Source: a virus (Duplodnaviria; Heunggongvirae; Uroviricota; Caudoviricetes). Taken from it: a stretch of 17,310 bases of DNA. The DNA lies in the IMG/VR virus record IMGVR_UViG_3300046689_000419, one strand, 5' to 3'. A program made the position numbers and the translations under genes. Position 1 is the stretch's first letter, and every line of letters begins with the position of its first letter. Below, in pieces: positions 681 through 11,256 of this stretch. The notes under the pieces were generated by a model. The model was not told where the DNA came from. It ran no database searches and saw nothing but the letters and a program-made list of their open reading frames with translations.

Positions 681-916
681 GCACTGCACCCACGGTCGGG
701 CGGATCGTGCACTACGTGTCGTACGGCACGCCCGGCGGCGAGTACCTGCCCGAGTGCCGCGCGGCGGTGGTCACCGAGATCAACCCGAAGGACATCGGCA
801 TCGCGGTGTTGAACCCGACTGGACTGTTCTTCGACCGGCAGATCCGCCAGTCCGAGGACAAGCACACCGGTGGCACCTGGCACTGGCCATGCGTGAGAAC
901 CGAGGAGAACGAGTGA
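677..916 (+). CDS. Small hypothetical phage protein, 79 aa (PTVGRIVHY...GTWHWP type)
   Basis: ATGA overlap at 677-680 and GTGA overlap at 913-916; high GC3. The motif is one I recognise from phage hypothetical proteins, function unknown. Confidence 0.8.
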   Translation: MSTAPTVGRIVHYVSYGTPGGEYLPECRAAVVTEINPKDIGIAVLNPTGLFFDRQIRQSEDKHTGGTWHWPCVRTEENE

Positions 917-1239
917 ACGTGGTAAATCCAAAGATCGTTGACGCCAGCGAGATCAAGCGGCGTCCGCGCAAGGCCCCGGCCACCCGGCTGATCGAGTCGC
1001 TGCCGCCTGGCCTGCTGACCGCGCGCCAGGTGGCCGAGCACTTCGACGTGAGCATCGAGACCATTCGACGGCTCGGCCGGGCGAAACTGTCGGACGGCGA
1101 GGCTAAGTTCACCGCACCGAGCAAGGCTGCGCGGACCGGTGACCTGATCGTCTGGCTGTACACCAAGGACGACATGAAGGAGCTCGCGGAGTACTTCGGG
1201 AGGAAGGAACCAACCACCACGAAGGGAAAGAGGAAGTAG
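913..1239 (+). CDS. Helix-turn-helix DNA-binding protein (MerR/excisionase-like), 108 aa
   Basis: GTG 913 with GAGGAG upstream; LLTARQVAEHFDVSIETIRRL is a typical HTH; basic C-terminal tail. Confidence 0.75.
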   Translation: MNVVNPKIVDASEIKRRPRKAPATRLIESLPPGLLTARQVAEHFDVSIETIRRLGRAKLSDGEAKFTAPSKAARTGDLIVWLYTKDDMKELAEYFGRKEPTTTKGKRK

Positions 1240-1485
1240 ATGAACGAAGTCACCAGGAAGGGAAGTGACGCCTTCGTCTTGTACGCGGGCGACCGGATCA
1301 CCGTGGGCGTGACCCACCAGATCGAGGTCGGCCGGGACAAGTCGTGGGTGAAGTACGAAGCCACCACCAGGCTTGACGAAGGTGAGAGCGCAGAAGACGC
1401 AAGGACCCGGGCCGTAGGCCACGTCAACGAGAGCGTCATGGTAGCCGTGCAGCAGACCGTCGAGAAGATCAGGAGCATGAAGTGA
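1240..1485 (+). CDS. Hypothetical protein, 81 aa
   Basis: ATG directly after the upstream TAG, purine-rich RBS, ends in a GTGA overlap. Confidence 0.8.
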   Translation: MNEVTRKGSDAFVLYAGDRITVGVTHQIEVGRDKSWVKYEATTRLDEGESAEDARTRAVGHVNESVMVAVQQTVEKIRSMK

Positions 1486-2291
1486 GGTTCGGCAAGAGCG
1501 CGGATGAGGCCGCGCAGGAGGCACCACGAGGGGGAGGTGGCGGAGACTTCATCCGCTACCTGAAGGACGGGGACACCACCTTCCGGATCCTGCAGGAGCC
1601 GGACGACTGGAAGTACTGGTGGGAGCACTTCAGCCCCGCCGGGTTCTCCTTCCCGTGCCCGCGCAGCCCGGAGGATCCGGTCGAGGACTGCCCCGGCTGC
1701 TCCTCGGACAACGAGAAGATGAGCAAGGTGAACCGGAAGATCGGGTTCAACGTGCTGTCGTCCTGGAACGGCCAGGAGTACGTGAACGCCTTCAAGGTGG
1801 GCCCGACGGTGGCCGACAAGCTGGAGAACCGGTACAAGCGGTTCACCACGATCTGCGACAGGGACTACACGATCACCCGGTACAAGTCCTCGGGGGACCG
1901 CTGGGACTTCGACGTGGAGGGTGGCACCCCGCACCCGATCGACCTGGACCGGTACGAGCTGAAGAACATCGAGGCGATGCTCCAGCAGTCCTGGGACGAG
2001 GCCTGGGGCGACCCGAGCCAGGCCCAGGCGAACTTGGCGGCGAGCAACACAGCCACTCAGGAGGCCGCGGTGGCCCAGAAGGTCAAGCGGGCCACCATCG
2101 CCCCGCAGAAGCCGGCTGTGCAGCCCGAGGAGCCCCCTTTTGAGCCGAAGGTCTACCAGGAGGCGGACCTTCGCCAGATGGAGTACGAGGACCTCCTGAT
2201 GACGGTCAAGCAGGACATGGGGGGCACCGTGCCGCCGGCCACCCTGACCACCACCAATGAGGTGGTGGACTGGCTGATGTCCCTGCAGTAA
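1482..2291 (+). CDS. Single-stranded DNA-binding protein, T4 gp32-like, 269 aa
   Basis: FIRYLKDGDTTFRIL...WWEH...CP...CPGC (putative Zn ligands), OB-fold-like core, Ala/Gln/Pro/acidic tail; AGGAG RBS; lies next to the polymerase. Confidence 0.75.
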   Translation: MRFGKSADEAAQEAPRGGGGGDFIRYLKDGDTTFRILQEPDDWKYWWEHFSPAGFSFPCPRSPEDPVEDCPGCSSDNEKMSKVNRKIGFNVLSSWNGQEYVNAFKVGPTVADKLENRYKRFTTICDRDYTITRYKSSGDRWDFDVEGGTPHPIDLDRYELKNIEAMLQQSWDEAWGDPSQAQANLAASNTATQEAAVAQKVKRATIAPQKPAVQPEEPPFEPKVYQEADLRQMEYEDLLMTVKQDMGGTVPPATLTTTNEVVDWLMSLQ

Positions 2292-2298
2292 CCCATCC

Positions 2299-2349
2299 GT
2301 GGGTGCGACCGGGCGGATCCAAGACCTCGAGACCCCCGGCCGCACCCAC
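2299..2349 (+). other. GC-rich stem-loop (15 bp arms, 1 mismatch, 21 nt loop); possible terminator or RNA processing element
   Basis: GTGGGTGCGACCGGG (2299-2313) pairs with CCCGGCCGCACCCAC (2335-2349). No U-tract follows. Confidence 0.65.
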
Positions 2350-2355
2350 CACCAG

Positions 2356-2369
2356 GTTTCACGTGAAAC
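2356..2369. promoter_or_regulatory. parS: Chromosomal-type parS site (ParB-binding palindrome)
   Basis: Exact 14 bp palindrome GTTTCACGTGAAAC, the established actinobacterial parS and the core of the universal TGTTTCACGTGAAACA. It is intergenic between SSB and dnaE. Confidence 0.85.
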
Positions 2370-2378
2370 GAGATACCC

Positions 2379-5165
2379 ATGAGGATCGTGCCCACACCCC
2401 GGTGGCGGATCATCCCGGCGCAGCCGGCCGCCGGTTGGTGGAGCGTACACACCCACTCCCGGTACTCGGTCAACGACGCGATGCCCACCGTCGAGGCGCT
2501 GGTGGCCAAGGTCAAGGCGCTCGGCCAACCTGCGTTGGGGTTGACCGACCACGGCAACATGGCGGGCAGCGTGGAGCTCTACCAGGCCTGCATGAAGGCA
2601 GGTGTGACCCCCTTCCCTGGGTCAGAGCTGTACTTCGTGCCGGACACGATGGCCTACCGCGCGGACCGGGCGGCCAAGGACCGCAAGGCGACGATGTACC
2701 ACCTCGGGGTGCTGGCCTACACCACGGCGGGCTACCAGAACCTGGTCAACCTCTCCACGCTCACGCATCGCAACCACCACTGGAAGCCGCTGGCCGACTA
2801 CCCGATGTTCGCTCAGCTGGCCGAGGACGGCCGGACCGAGGGGCTGGCGGTGACCACCGGCTGCTACTTCGGGTATCTGGCCCAGCTGCTCACCACCGGC
2901 TGTGAGCAGGCCGCCACGCAGTTCCTACACACCCTGAGCCGGTGGTTCCCCGATAGCGTGTACGTCGAGGTGCAGAACCACCGGATCGACCATGAGGACG
3001 GGTGGGACGATGAACAGCTGGCGCAGGCCCTGGTCGGGCTGGCCGACCAGGTGGGTCTTCCCGTGGTCATCACCCAGGACTCGCACTACCTCGATCCAGA
3101 AGATCGTCGGGACCATGACGGACTCAAGCGACTCGTCGCCTTCGGACCAGATCCCGACGACGCTGTTTTCCCCGGCGATGGTTTCCACCTCGCGGACGGT
3201 CGATGGATCGCTGAACATCATGGTGAACATCGCCTTGCGCGAGGCCTGGAAGGACTGGCGGATCTCCTCGGTCGCCACACACTCACAATCCCTGTCCTTG
3301 ACTCTTACACCTACTCCGTCCCGGAAGTAGTCGCCGACCCGTTCTTCGCGCTGGCGAACCGGGCGATCGCGGCCCTGGAGGGGATGTTCGCACCGGACAA
3401 GGTGCCACCGCGCTACGGCCTGCACCTGGACGACGAGCTGGAGGTGATCGACGCCTCCGGGATGGCCGGCTACCTGATGCTGGTCGCCCAGGTCACCGAC
3501 TGGCTGCGCGATCGGGACATCATGTTCCAGACCCGGGGCAGTGCCGCCGGCTCGCTGGTCTGCTGGCTGCTCGGGATCTCCAATGTGGATCCGATCGAGT
3601 GGAACCTTCGCTTCGAGCGGTTCCTGAGCAAGGATCGAACCAAGCCACCGGACGTGGACCTGGATGTGGCCCACGACCGTCGTGACGAGCTCCTCGAGAT
3701 GCTTGATACCCGGTTCACCGCGCATCAGATCGGGTCGTGGGCCACCTACTCGCTGAACGACACCGAGGACGAGTTCGGTGAGACCCAGCGAGGTTCTCTG
3801 CGAGTCCGATATTTTACCGCCGCTCAGAAGAAGGACGAGGGGGCCACCTCCTGGTCCGAGGTGCCCGCCGAGGACAAGGCCATGCTGGTCTCGCTCTCGA
3901 ACCGGCACCTGTACAAGGGGATGGGCACCAATGCCGCCGGCATCGTGCTGACCGGCAGCAAGGCCGAGTTCGAGGCGCTGGTGCCGATGGCCTGGATGGC
4001 CTCCCGCAAGGCGTTCGTCACCCAGTACTCCAAGGACCAGATCGAGGCGCTCGGGCTGGTCAAGCTGGACGCGCTGGGCCTGAAGACGATGACCATCCTG
4101 GACCGGACGATGCGGCTGCTCGGGCTGCCGCTGTCCCGGCTGGCCGACATCGAGTACAAGGACCTGCCCACCTACGAGCTGATCAGGTCGGGGCGGACCG
4201 AGGGGATCTTCCAGCTGGAGGGTCGGTCCACCCAGTGGGGGCTGCGGGACCTGAAGCCGACCACGATCAAGGACGTGATCGCGGCGATGGCGCTGTTCAG
4301 GCCAGCCACCATGAACACCGGCGCAACCCGCGCGTATATCGCGCGGAAGTTCAAGCAGGCTGCGGTGCCGGTGCGACACCCGCTGATCGCCCGGGTCATC
4401 GCGCCCACCTACGGGATCATGCTGTACCAGGAGCAGGTGATCGACATCCTGCGCGCGCTGGGTCTGGGTGCGGACGACTTGACCACCTTCCTCAAAGCGG
4501 TCAAAGCGTCCAACAAGGACATCGGCGACGCGGGTGCGGTGATCGAGACCTACCAGCAGTGGATCAACGACCGGTGCGTGGCAGAGGGGATGAGCCAGGA
4601 TGACATGGACTACCTGCGGGCCGCGATCGCTGGTTTTGCGGAGTACGGATTCAACCGTGCACACGCCACTGTCTACGGGATCACCGCCTATCGGTGCGCT
4701 TATCTGGCAGCTCGGCATCCGCTTGAGTTCCACACCGCTCTGCTGGGCGTGGCGAGTGGTGGCGAGTCGAAGAAGGAGAACCGCTACCTGCGGGCCACCA
4801 GGCTTCGTGGCATCCGGGTGCTCGCCCCGGACATCAACATCAGCGGAGCCAGCTACACGATGGACACCCTGGACGAGCGCCGGGCCGCGGTGCGCCGAGG
4901 ACTGCAGTCCATCGACGGGGTGGGCGGCCTCAGCGCCCGCCGCCTCGCCGACCTGCAGCCCTTCGAGGACCTGGACGATCTGGTCCAGCGGGCGGCCACC
5001 GCCTCGGTCTCGGGCCACAAGGAGTACGACGGGACCCCGGAGTCACTGACCGGGATCCTCGGGCACCTGTTCACCTCGGGTGCCCTGACCACCCTCATCC
5101 ATGGAAGGAACAACAATGTCAGCACGATGCGAGGCGATGGTACAGACCCGGATCAGCGGCCGTAG
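2379..5165 (+). CDS. dnaE: DNA polymerase III alpha subunit (family C), C-terminally shortened, 928 aa
   Basis: PHP motifs HTHSRYSVND, TDHG, GSE, YHL, TTGC, QDSHY; RGSAAGSLV; RFERF; catalytic PPDVDLD and KLDALG; EYGFNRAHA; HhH region GLQSIDGVG. Confidence 0.97.
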   Translation: MRIVPTPRWRIIPAQPAAGWWSVHTHSRYSVNDAMPTVEALVAKVKALGQPALGLTDHGNMAGSVELYQACMKAGVTPFPGSELYFVPDTMAYRADRAAKDRKATMYHLGVLAYTTAGYQNLVNLSTLTHRNHHWKPLADYPMFAQLAEDGRTEGLAVTTGCYFGYLAQLLTTGCEQAATQFLHTLSRWFPDSVYVEVQNHRIDHEDGWDDEQLAQALVGLADQVGLPVVITQDSHYLDPEDRRDHDGLKRLVAFGPDPDDAVFPGDGFHLADGRWIAEHHGEHRLARGLEGLADLLGRHTLTIPVLDSYTYSVPEVVADPFFALANRAIAALEGMFAPDKVPPRYGLHLDDELEVIDASGMAGYLMLVAQVTDWLRDRDIMFQTRGSAAGSLVCWLLGISNVDPIEWNLRFERFLSKDRTKPPDVDLDVAHDRRDELLEMLDTRFTAHQIGSWATYSLNDTEDEFGETQRGSLRVRYFTAAQKKDEGATSWSEVPAEDKAMLVSLSNRHLYKGMGTNAAGIVLTGSKAEFEALVPMAWMASRKAFVTQYSKDQIEALGLVKLDALGLKTMTILDRTMRLLGLPLSRLADIEYKDLPTYELIRSGRTEGIFQLEGRSTQWGLRDLKPTTIKDVIAAMALFRPATMNTGATRAYIARKFKQAAVPVRHPLIARVIAPTYGIMLYQEQVIDILRALGLGADDLTTFLKAVKASNKDIGDAGAVIETYQQWINDRCVAEGMSQDDMDYLRAAIAGFAEYGFNRAHATVYGITAYRCAYLAARHPLEFHTALLGVASGGESKKENRYLRATRLRGIRVLAPDINISGASYTMDTLDERRAAVRRGLQSIDGVGGLSARRLADLQPFEDLDDLVQRAATASVSGHKEYDGTPESLTGILGHLFTSGALTTLIHGRNNNVSTMRGDGTDPDQRP
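3115..3330 (+). CDS. Candidate overprinted gene in the +1 frame of dnaE, 71 aa
   Basis: 37 of 79 dnaE codons at 3093-3329 end in A/T versus 2 of the next 50, and the anomaly stops at this ORF's TAG (3328-3330). In-frame upstream ATGs exist at 2992 and 3010. Confidence 0.45.
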   Translation: MTDSSDSSPSDQIPTTLFSPAMVSTSRTVDGSLNIMVNIALREAWKDWRISSVATHSQSLSLTLTPTPSRK

Positions 5166-5612: not shown

Positions 5613-5639
5613 ACGAACAAACGTACGTCGTACTAGTGT
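5610..5639 (+). promoter_or_regulatory. Putative sigma70-type promoter overlapped by the SOS boxes
   Basis: TAGACG (5610-5615), 18 bp spacer, TAGTGT (5634-5639, fits TANNNT), in an AT-richer intergenic gap. Confidence 0.45.
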
Positions 5640-5643
5640 TCGA
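5613..5643. promoter_or_regulatory. Two tandem actinobacterial LexA (SOS) box-like operators
   Basis: TCGTAC-TAGT-GTTCGA (5628-5643) has 1 mismatch to TCGAAC-N4-GTTCGA. ACGAAC-AAAC-GTACGT (5613-5628) has 3 mismatches. Confidence 0.65.
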
Positions 5644-5670
5644 TATGGGAGTGACAGATGAAGGGTGCTG

Positions 5671-6426
5671 ATGAAGTTCTCCGAGACGGTGAAGAGCACC
5701 GCCCCTGACCTGGTGGTCAGCCGCCGGCATGATGCCTGGGTGGGCCGGAACGACGCGCACCCGCAGTACAGCCAGCACGCGCTGTCCTTCGCGCTGCGCC
5801 AGCTGTCCGCGGGGGACCGAGTGCGCAAGGGCACCATCAGCGCCTCCAGCCTGGGTGGCTGCGCGCGGGAGCAGCAGTTCACCTACCTCGGGCTGGCCAA
5901 GCTGCCACCGGATGAGAAGAACGCGGCGAAGATGCAGAACGGCTCGTTCATGCACCTGCGCTGGCAGCTGGAGGGGCTCACCGAGGGCTGGCTGGAGCGG
6001 GCCGAGGTGCCGATTCCCCGCAACCCGTACCGACTGAGCGGAACCATGGATGGGCTGCTCTACGAGGACTCGGTGCTCGAGCTGAAGAGCATCAACATGA
6101 ATGGCTTCTCCCGGGTGCAGACCTTCGGCCCGCTGTTCGACCATCTCTACCAGATGGCCACCTACATGCTGGTCAGCGGGCGCGAGAAGGGCGTGTTCAT
6201 CTACGAGTGCAAGGACAACCAGGAGTACAAGGAGATCGTGGTCGGCCGGAAGGACCTGCCGATGGTCGAGGCCGAGGAGCAGGCCCAGACCTTATGGGAG
6301 GCGGTAGAAGACCGCAACCTGATGGAGCCGCTGAGCAAGTGCCTGGACCGGACCGGCTGGAAGTACCAGTCCTGCCCGTACCGGGACCGATGCCTGAGCA
6401 TCCATGACTGGGACCAGGCGCGATGA
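5671..6426 (+). CDS. Cas4-like / RecB-family PD-(D/E)XK exonuclease, 251 aa
   Basis: SASSLGGCARE, GSFMH, SGTMDG..ELKS, QMATY, and C-terminal C-x10-C-x5-C (putative Fe-S ligands together with the N-terminal Cys). ATG 5671 preferred over GTG 5665. Confidence 0.85.
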   Translation: MKFSETVKSTAPDLVVSRRHDAWVGRNDAHPQYSQHALSFALRQLSAGDRVRKGTISASSLGGCAREQQFTYLGLAKLPPDEKNAAKMQNGSFMHLRWQLEGLTEGWLERAEVPIPRNPYRLSGTMDGLLYEDSVLELKSINMNGFSRVQTFGPLFDHLYQMATYMLVSGREKGVFIYECKDNQEYKEIVVGRKDLPMVEAEEQAQTLWEAVEDRNLMEPLSKCLDRTGWKYQSCPYRDRCLSIHDWDQAR

Positions 6427-9768: not shown

Positions 9769-9890
9769 GCCTGGCCAGTGAGTGGGAGCGGCTGGTAGAG
9801 GCGCTCAAGCGGCTCTGGATGGTGCTGGTGGAGAAGGGCTACGCCGGCTGGATCGTCTGGGCCGCCCGGCAGGCGGGCGCGCCGGTATGA
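9765..9890 (+). CDS. Amphipathic micro-protein, 41 aa (MSLASEWERLVEALKRLWMVLVEKGYAGWIVWAARQAGAPV)
   Basis: ATGA overlaps on both sides; high GC3. Confidence 0.7.
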   Translation: MSLASEWERLVEALKRLWMVLVEKGYAGWIVWAARQAGAPV

Positions 9891-10393
9891 CCGTGATCGG
9901 CATCGATCTGGGCACTCGGAAGGTAGCCGTCGCGGTGCTCACCGGTGATGGGCTGCAGCGGGCTACCGCCTATGCGCCGGCCGAGGGCCTGAGCCGGGGC
10001 TACCAGCTGCTCGAGCTGGGCCGGTACGTGCACGACCAGGCGCTGTTCCACGATGCCGACCAGGTGTGGATCGAGGACGTGATCGTCGGGAACAACCACA
10101 AGTACTCGCTCCAGCTGGCCCAGGTGCTGGGCGCGGTGCTGGCTGCGCTGGGGGTGAGCCCGGCGGGCCTGGATGTCCGGCTGGTGGGCAACAAGGCCTG
10201 GAAGAAGGAGATCGTCGGGAACGGTAACGCCAGCAAGGACATGATCAGGAACTACATCGTTGACACTCATCCTGACTATGCTCTGCTGTGTGCCGATGAC
10301 CAGGACAAGTACGACGCCACCTGCATCGGCCTCTATGGACTCGCCATCACCGACCGAGCCCGAGACCTCCGGCTGGCCGACGCACCCGAGTAG
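9887..10393 (+). CDS. ruvC: RuvC-like Holliday junction resolvase, 168 aa
   Basis: VIGIDLG, VWIED, WKKEIVGNGNASK and DKYDA carry the RuvC acidic catalytic residues; ATG 9887 sits in an ATGA overlap. Confidence 0.92.
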   Translation: MTVIGIDLGTRKVAVAVLTGDGLQRATAYAPAEGLSRGYQLLELGRYVHDQALFHDADQVWIEDVIVGNNHKYSLQLAQVLGAVLAALGVSPAGLDVRLVGNKAWKKEIVGNGNASKDMIRNYIVDTHPDYALLCADDQDKYDATCIGLYGLAITDRARDLRLADAPE

Positions 10394-10871
10394 CCACTCG
10401 CTGGACTCCTGGCTGGACCTAACCGGGCAGCGGATGCCGGACAGCGACGACCAGCGCTGGGTCTCCTACAACGTGAAGGACCTGTACCCGGACTGGCAGG
10501 CCCGCGCGCACTGCGCGGGAGTGGGCATCGGCTACTACTTCGGCGAGTCCATCCAGCAGGTCCGGCGGGCCTCCAAGCTCTGCGACGTGTGCCCGGTGTT
10601 CTACGAGTGCCTGACCCATGCCCTGGTCAACCGGGAGGCCTACGGGGTCTGGGCAGGCACATCTGGGCGGATGCGCCGCCGGATCTTCAAGATGGTGGAC
10701 ACTGGGCAGACCACGGTGGCCGAGGTGGTGGAGGTGTTCAGGAGTGGCGAAGGTAACCGATATCGGGTCCCCGGGCCCGAGCAAGGGGCTGGCGAACCAG
10801 CCCCCGTCCGCGAGCCGTACGCCGACCTTGCCCCGGAGCCGGTCCCCCGAGAGGTTCTGGGAACGGGCTAG
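10335..10871 (+). CDS. whiB: WhiB-family Fe-S transcription factor (start uncertain: 10335 or 10434)
   Basis: WQARAHC...LCDVCPVFYECL...GVWAG: four Cys plus the G-V-W-x-G turn. Confidence 0.92.
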   Translation: MDSPSPTEPETSGWPTHPSSHSLDSWLDLTGQRMPDSDDQRWVSYNVKDLYPDWQARAHCAGVGIGYYFGESIQQVRRASKLCDVCPVFYECLTHALVNREAYGVWAGTSGRMRRRIFKMVDTGQTTVAEVVEVFRSGEGNRYRVPGPEQGAGEPAPVREPYADLAPEPVPREVLGTG

Positions 10872-11256
10872 GGAGGCCTTCGACCTGCGCCTGGAGGGGC
10901 ACTCGCCGGCGGACATCGCGGAGATCCTCTCGATCAAGCCCGCGGAGGTCAGTCAGCTGCTCACCGAGCTGTACGGGTTCGAGGCCGGCTTCCTGACCGA
11001 CATCGAGCGGAAGACCGCGCTGGCCACCGAGGTGGCCCGCCTGGACAAGCTGCAGACCGCGGTCTGGCCCTCGGCGATGATGGGCGACCCGAAGAGCGTG
11101 GACTCCGCGGTGCGGATCATCATGGCCCGGGCCAAGATCACCGGCCTCGAGCAGGCCGACCCGGTGGTGAACAAGAACCTGGTGCTGGTGATGGGCGAGA
11201 AGGAAGAGGACTACATCAAGGCTCTGCGGAACGCCGGAGTGACAGAGCCGGGATGA
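10744..11256 (+). CDS. HTH protein, probable terminase small subunit, 170 aa
   Basis: AFDLRLEGHSPADIAEIL (HTH) then RLDKLQTAVWPSAMMGDPKSVDSAVRIIMARAKITGL, a pattern typical of actinophage terS-like proteins. GTG 10744 with GAGGT upstream. Confidence 0.65.
   Translation: MAKVTDIGSPGPSKGLANQPPSASRTPTLPRSRSPERFWERAREAFDLRLEGHSPADIAEILSIKPAEVSQLLTELYGFEAGFLTDIERKTALATEVARLDKLQTAVWPSAMMGDPKSVDSAVRIIMARAKITGLEQADPVVNKNLVLVMGEKEEDYIKALRNAGVTEPG

Follow-up and report, generated by a model that had tools for sequence, protein, structure and literature searches.

The closest described counterpart is Bacillus phage phi29. According to PMC2731898 and PMC9437464, both of which cite Meijer et al. 2005, its genome carries five host-type parS sites that are bound by Spo0J, the host ParB; Spo0J is implicated in moving the phi29 genome into the prespore, and Spo0A boxes suspend the lytic cycle. 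Other mobile elements with a centromere-like site for the loading of a ParB-type protein, namely P1, N15, the extrachromosomal prophages of mycobacteriophages and the Streptomyces plasmid SCP1, encode their own ParA and ParB and use a private parS. These private sites show no cross-reaction with the chromosomal system; in the case of SCP1, neither of its two ParBs binds the 14-bp site of the chromosome (PMC13245405). In Actinobacteria, GTTTCACGTGAAAC or its 16-bp form is the chromosomal parS of M. smegmatis (3 sites), C. glutamicum (10) and S. coelicolor (about 21), and the partners of ParB include SMC and TopA (PMC7022226); the extended consensus tGTTTCACGTGAAACa was taken from PMC7022226 and PMC2346475. 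Chromosomal sites of this kind are clustered near oriC, beside parAB. On extrachromosomal DNA, one host-type parS is said to suffice for Spo0J/Soj-dependent partition: a single chromosomal parS reportedly stabilised an unstable plasmid in B. subtilis, in work attributed to Lin and Grossman (Cell, 1998). That plasmid was a laboratory construct, whereas the DNA described below belongs to a natural virus.

The stretch of DNA that we analysed, hereafter the window, is 17,310 nucleotides long and corresponds to bases 20008-37317, minus strand, of a 61,735-bp IMG/VR viral record (G000) rated 76% complete. It contains one exact copy of GTTTCACGTGAAAC, which matches at all 14 bp the parS core of Actinobacteria and most other bacteria (Table 1). 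As the preliminary description had stated, this palindrome is intergenic and stands 9 bp upstream of a dnaE gene: the dnaE-like gene is separated from a 269-aa gene by 87 nt, and the site, which falls in this gap, is identical to the parS of M. smegmatis, C. glutamicum and S. coelicolor (PMC7022226). Compared with tGTTTCACGTGAAACa, 14 of the 16 positions agree, the core being complete (14/14) and both outer positions of the 16-bp form being non-consensus (flanks G and G). The chance estimate of roughly 1e-5 per window given earlier is borne out as well, since the composition of the window (66.6% GC) predicts about 1.6e-5 exact matches; dinucleotide shuffles of the window gave 0.01 matches at ≤2 mismatches. 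The site is a single copy in the whole 61,735-bp record searched at ≤2 mismatches, and no parA or parB was found either in the window, in agreement with the preliminary description, or in the rest of the record.

Table 1. Features of the window, parS placements in related contigs and other loci mentioned in the text. Plain numbers are window positions.
Feature	Location	Strand	Remarks
HTH protein gene	754-1239		upstream of parS
269-aa gene	1482-2291	+	conserved dnaE neighbour in relatives
GC-rich hairpin	2299-2349	+	3' of the 269-aa gene; 3' arm ends 6 nt before parS
parS 14-mer GTTTCACGTGAAAC	2356-2369	.	exact palindrome, read from the sequence
Spacer GAGATACCC	2370-2378	+	9 nt, from parS to the dnaE ATG
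dnaE-like DNA polymerase III alpha gene, 928 aa	2379-5165	+	Pfam PHP, DNA_pol3_alpha, DNA_pol3_finger, HHH_6
N-terminal extension of DnaE	2379-2460		precedes the PHP HxH motif
Second half-dyad ACGAAC..GTACGT with abutting LexA-like dyad	5614-5643		just upstream of the Cas4-like exonuclease gene
LexA-box-like dyad TCGTACTAGTGTTCGA	5628-5643		1 mismatch to TCGAAC-N4-GTTCGA
Cas4-like exonuclease gene	5665-6426		
RuvC-like gene	9782-10393		
212-aa gene	10618-11256		weak Sigma70_r4_2 match, E = 5e-5
parS in G011	DnaE codons 17-21		encodes V-S-R-E-T; 48 nt into the gene; G011 complete, terminal repeats, DTR-bounded
parS in G010	inside a 74-aa gene		just before a CxxC...CxxC zinc ribbon
parS in G021/G022	C-terminal end of a shortened homologue of the G010 ribbon gene		9 nt before the next ATG
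parS in G055	gene junction		a 135-aa gene has its stop codon, TGA, within parS
parS in G054	within the methyltransferase domain of a 426-aa FkbM/TPR protein		encodes F-H-V-K
tRNA-Tyr gene in G011	L012:3877-3958		between a 277-aa gene and dnaE
SPFH/Band-7 gene, G000	G000:C1:47505-48362		outside the window
SPFH/Band-7 gene, G011	G011:67828-68715		
SPFH/Band-7 gene, G055	G055:37742-38656		Pfam PF01145, E = 2e-10
SPFH/Band-7 gene, G027	G027:8192-9007		
SPFH/Band-7 gene, G046	G046:47859-48743		

The gap that holds the site also contains a strong, GC-rich hairpin, and the fold of 2289-2400 has an MFE of -41.3 kcal/mol (z = -3.4). An equivalent hairpin occurs between the homologue of the 269-aa gene and dnaE in relatives, its structure being kept across the clade and its sequence not. 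The hairpin may act in termination, attenuation or RNA stability. It has no U-tract and was not called by a simple terminator scan, and a simple scan of the pre-dnaE gap found no sigma-70-type promoter, so that dnaE is probably read through from upstream. The only Shine-Dalgarno-like stretch in the gap, AACGAGA, consists of the last parS bases and GAG. An RNA-hairpin role for the palindrome itself was considered and is unlikely, as the predicted fold of 2289-2400 leaves it unused.

DnaE served as the clade marker. The window protein is 60-83% identical to those of 17 viral contigs, and the nearest cultured phages by DnaE are Gordonia phages, at 36% identity; a near-identity search against cultured phages gave no match, and parS was not found in the 83,324-bp record G061, taken as Gordonia phage GMA6. 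All DnaE proteins of the clade start with a conserved basic, Pro-rich extension (M-R/K-I-I-P-T-P-R-W-R-I-x-P...). The product of the 269-aa gene, labelled SSB in the preliminary description, has no Pfam and no PHROG match, so that the label is a conjecture; a weak Atlas lead (score 0.86) makes a gp32-like ssDNA-binding protein possible. In relatives, homologues ending ..VDWLM.. stand before dnaE. Host leads were few: the genome collection contributed no more than a DnaE of 38% identity, on a contig of Streptomyces levis, and a 627-aa window protein, which matches only fibre and decoration domains from unrelated phages, yielded none. The host is probably actinobacterial. The S. levis sequence is a phage-like dnaE gene on the 71.5-kb contig 22 of the JCM 6924 assembly (L248), which may be a prophage or a co-purified phage; among the S. 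levis parS matches listed, none is on a contig numbered 22, and contig naming may differ between the record and the search tool.

Two further features of the window are recorded here in their own right. Next to the Cas4-like exonuclease gene, the LexA-box-like dyad, which is abutted by a second half-dyad, may mark a further site for a host regulator in this phage. As for companions of parS comparable to the Spo0A boxes of phi29, it was the only host-regulator-like site seen. Between the RuvC-like gene and the structural genes, the 212-aa gene may encode a phage late-gene sigma factor or regulator.

To see how the site is distributed among relatives, an IMG/VR search with the DnaE protein was followed by one with a DnaE alignment (A1), 66 loci being retrieved in all, and the whole clade contigs (62 records, 2.56 Mb) were scanned at ≤1 mismatch; many of these contigs are fragmentary and some are near-duplicates from sibling samples. 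The scan returned 7 perfect copies, of which 6 are distinct, where composition predicts 0.002-0.005. They lie in the window's own record and in six other contigs (G010, G011, G021, G022, G054 and G055; G021 and G022 being sibling-sample duplicates), and no contig has more than one. One-mismatch copies were found only in G025 and G032, with 0.17 expected in 2.56 Mb, and the reversed word was absent from all 62 contigs. Under a Poisson model, 6 or more perfect copies would arise in this amount of DNA with a probability of about 1e-17 or less. When 420 palindromes of 14 bp with the same half-site composition were counted in 549 kb of DnaE-centred loci, a selection blind to parS, parS occurred 5 times and each of the other 419 was absent. 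In 1.12 Mb of DNA surrounding distant metagenome DnaE homologues there was no site at ≤1 mismatch; this metagenome scan by DnaE alignment returned mostly homologues of about 30% identity and served solely as an out-group; L287, the single clade member among its returns, lacks the word ahead of dnaE. In the whole viral collection the 14-mer occurs in at least 119 stretches, a count that comes without a size or composition baseline, is uninformative and was left out.

Perfect copies outnumber one-mismatch copies by 7 to 2, where composition predicts a ratio of 1 to 48; this excess indicates purifying selection. The same bias is seen in a real Streptomyces chromosome: the S. levis genome, our positive control, contains the word 20 times in perfect form and 4 times with one mismatch; at least 17 of the perfect copies share a single contig, and the reversed word was not found in it. 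In both the identity of the 14 bp and the preference for perfect over near-perfect copies, the phage sites thus resemble those of actinobacterial chromosomal ParABS. The outer positions differ, T flanks being present in 6 of 14 half-sites across all phage sites versus 21 of 30 in S. levis. The parS word is under selection in this clade. Only about 11% of the clade contigs have a perfect site, and among the 14 genomes that are at least 90% complete, one has a perfect copy and one more a 13/14 copy, which marks the trait as dispensable and sporadic.

With regard to its place in the genome, the site moves freely. The sequence at the pre-dnaE position is unrelated in most relatives, and a scan of viral contigs for the exact arrangement seen in the window (parS + GAG + N6 + ATGARRAT) gave no further contig. 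The exception is G025, whose DnaE is 70% identical and which has a homologous copy at the same spot with one central mismatch (13/14), after the same hairpin arm and followed by a 9-nt spacer beginning GAGA and by the dnaE ATG; 13 of the 14 site positions are identical between the two, as against 5 of the 9 spacer positions. The preliminary description had counted absence or degeneration in close relatives against its proposal, and taken literally this is what the position shows, with absence in most and 13/14 in one; the pattern stems from turnover of a selected site and not from chance.

The perfect copies elsewhere in the clade lie in unlike surroundings, up to 33 kb away from dnaE and mostly within the early or replication module (Table 1). 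In G011 the V-S-R-E-T peptide stands where all other clade DnaEs listed have a Pro-rich linker, the second half of the N-terminal extension being rewritten so that it now encodes parS; in the same genome a tRNA-Tyr gene fills the gap that in the window holds the hairpin and parS. The copies in G010 and G021/G022 flank a small zinc-ribbon gene on opposite sides, about 100 nt apart relative to the ribbon (alignment A3), and the latter has a 9-nt spacing beginning GAG, as in the window, before a gene other than dnaE. In G055 the site is directly followed by GGAGGTG and then by the ATG of a 77-aa gene. Wherever it is read in frame, the word imposes four consecutive A/T-ending codons on genes that have only 14-28% such codons, and the encoded peptide is not conserved; these two observations indicate that the constraint acts on the DNA. 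Since the same word is found in other genes and gaps of relatives, the selected function is independent of position: selection acts on the DNA word and not on its place.

A quick IQ-TREE phylogeny of DnaE (58 rows) shows the carriers scattered. G055 is a deep branch, G054 is sister to one non-carrier and G011 to two, G010 and G021/G022 form one small clade, and the window's record and G025 fall inside a 12-member subclade whose other members are negative; G012, the sister of the window's record, is uninformative for the site, as its contig starts inside dnaE. This scatter requires at least 5 independent gains.

The preliminary description had allowed for a phage-encoded ParB. ParB_N (PF02195) and the ParA-type AAA_31 and CbiA profiles are absent from the 16 clade contigs searched, including the complete G011. 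Tyrosine or serine integrases were not found in G000 (only 76% complete), G010, G011, G054 or G055; the ParB/ParA and integrase profile searches were all positive in named control genomes. On these gene contents the phage looks lytic, but a distant clade member, G057, is flagged as a provirus. The open reading frames of the carriers G000, G011, G054 and G055, with G010 scored too, were also compared with those of four complete non-carriers, and no family common to the carriers was missing from the four non-carriers other than an SPFH lipoprotein. This lipobox-bearing SPFH/Band-7 protein occurs in 3 of 5 large parS carriers versus 2 of 34 others (5 of 39 contigs). We considered it as a parS-linked binder and rejected it: it is not a DNA binder, and the association is post hoc, with no support outside the discovery set.

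Set against the known systems, the locus differs from self-encoded ParABS in both components, as the phage has neither protein and its site is the host's and not a private one, which separates it from P1, N15, the mycobacteriophage prophages and SCP1. It also differs from the chromosomal arrangement in that the origin-proximal cluster beside parAB is replaced by one orphan copy. With phi29 and Nf, virulent Bacillus phages, it shares the host chromosome's own parS, the lack of an integrase and of parAB, including in the complete G011, a host ParB as presumed or shown reader, and the feature that having the site matters and its position does not. The differences are that phi29 has five sites and Spo0A boxes leading to entrapment in the endospore, whereas here there is one site per genome, and that here a minority of the clade carries the site, gained repeatedly and even within coding sequence. 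The present phages form a clade of about 80 kb and high GC, known from sequence alone, with a DnaE polymerase and a likely actinobacterial host that makes exospores or none.

Taking these results together, we consider it probable that host ParB is loaded at this orphan site, from which clamps spread on the phage DNA, and that the genome is then handled like a chromosome origin. By keeping a functional copy of the host parS, the phage would have host ParB loaded onto its own DNA: judging from established ParB biology, dimers of the protein would attach to the site, become closed CTP clamps and move out over the adjoining phage DNA, and the partition complex formed in this way could engage ParA and recruit SMC. 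Whenever growth is slow, the host sporulates or a carrier state is established, so that lysis is delayed, the chromosomes of the host could take the unintegrated genome along into spores or daughter compartments. Binding by host ParB we infer from the identity of the sequence; as to what it is for, transport to daughter cells or into spores is one purpose suggested by analogy. Carriage is the least certain step of the mechanism, and by the same analogy it would be the most likely benefit; host sporulation need not be part of it, and the single site may serve some other ParB-dependent end. The hijacking of host ParB put forward in the preliminary description is supported by the selected word, the perfect host-type parS and the lack of phage ParA/ParB; a link with dnaE and the want of a precedent are not supported.

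The same evidence fits a takeover in which replicating phage genomes, each with a single parS, soak up ParB together with SMC, TopA or ParA, with no role in inheritance, so that host segregation and division are disrupted or phage replication intermediates are compacted and organised. For this purpose too a selected host-type site would work anywhere; most sites are in the early or replication module, actinobacterial ParB has SMC and TopA among its partners (PMC7022226), and the phage looks lytic. However, phi29, the only worked case, points to segregation, and a takeover function would be expected to be kept more uniformly across the clade. We regard this alternative as unlikely.

A local switch is a further alternative. 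Host ParB bound at -23 to -10 relative to the start codon would gate the initiation of transcription or translation for dnaE, or for any other gene that follows the site, and phage replication would be coupled to ParB occupancy or the host cell cycle. ParB-family clamps such as KorB can repress genes. In four contexts (window, G025, G021/G022 and G055) the site stands 9-12 nt before a start codon, where it abuts or overlaps the Shine-Dalgarno stretch; two of these four concern dnaE, and the G011 copy falls within the first 21 dnaE codons. But the downstream genes vary (dnaE, a 138-aa gene, a 77-aa gene), three copies are intragenic and far from any start (G010, G054 and, 48 nt in, G011), most clade members lack the site although their dnaE is equally conserved, and no promoter-like signal was found in the gap. 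Moreover, in genomes this tightly packed the few non-coding slots lie beside start codons, whether they have a regulatory role or not. The tie to dnaE expression proposed in the preliminary description is thus not upheld, the word being found in other genes and gaps of relatives. As the position is free among relatives, the place before dnaE is best seen as one of few non-coding slots and probably not as a dnaE-specific switch, and a local regulatory effect of the placement seems to us quite unlikely.

Still less can be said for a reader other than host ParB. The word would then equal parS by accident and be bound by a protein of the phage, fold as a hairpin in RNA, or act as a target for recombination or homing. 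The HTH protein encoded upstream in the window, with weak HTH_17, HTH_DeoR and excisionase-like matches, would be a candidate, and the palindrome could form a 5-bp RNA stem. Against this, it would be extraordinary for the word to match the host centromere exactly in six separate contexts by coincidence, the presence of the site is not followed by that of any gene family, the palindrome is left out of the predicted RNA fold, and there is one copy per genome where an operator set would number several; we hold such a reader to be very improbable. A chance match, or the chimera with host origin-region DNA that the preliminary description had mentioned, could appeal to the lone 14-bp match in the window and to the lack of the site at that position in most relatives, but with the Poisson probability given above, all controls empty, the match to the host limited to 14 bp and both flanks being phage genes syntenic with at least 60 relatives, which argues that the contig is not chimeric, it deserves next to no credence.

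Loading of host ParB onto an orphan site, which remains the explanation we prefer, is not a new mechanism: the preliminary description knew of no described case, and phi29 with its five host-type sites is one (PMC2731898 and PMC9437464), the principle having been in print since 2005. Our search of the literature found no report of a host-type parS in actinophages, and the novelty is in the breadth and the evidence, drawn from an uncultured high-GC phage clade. More tentatively, copying the host centromere may be a general convergent phage strategy that extends beyond phi29 and sporulation and serves to load ParB-CTP clamps, with ParA, SMC or TopA as their partners; this is possible, and we would not put it higher. 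If it is true, there would be a ParB-dependent route to a carrier or dormant state, or to the organisation of phage DNA, even in hosts without endospores, and a single exact host parS would evolve repeatedly in unrelated lytic phages, even at the cost of odd codons in essential genes.

The repeated gain and turnover of the site, even in coding sequence, is unusually clean comparative evidence for a selected 14-bp protein-binding word in a virus, and these phages would offer natural single-site substrates for ParB research. If host ParB does load at these sites, lytic actinophages would ride the host chromosome-segregation machinery, which would bear on pseudolysogeny and carrier states and on how phages persist without lysogeny in slow-growing, filamentous and sporulating soil bacteria.
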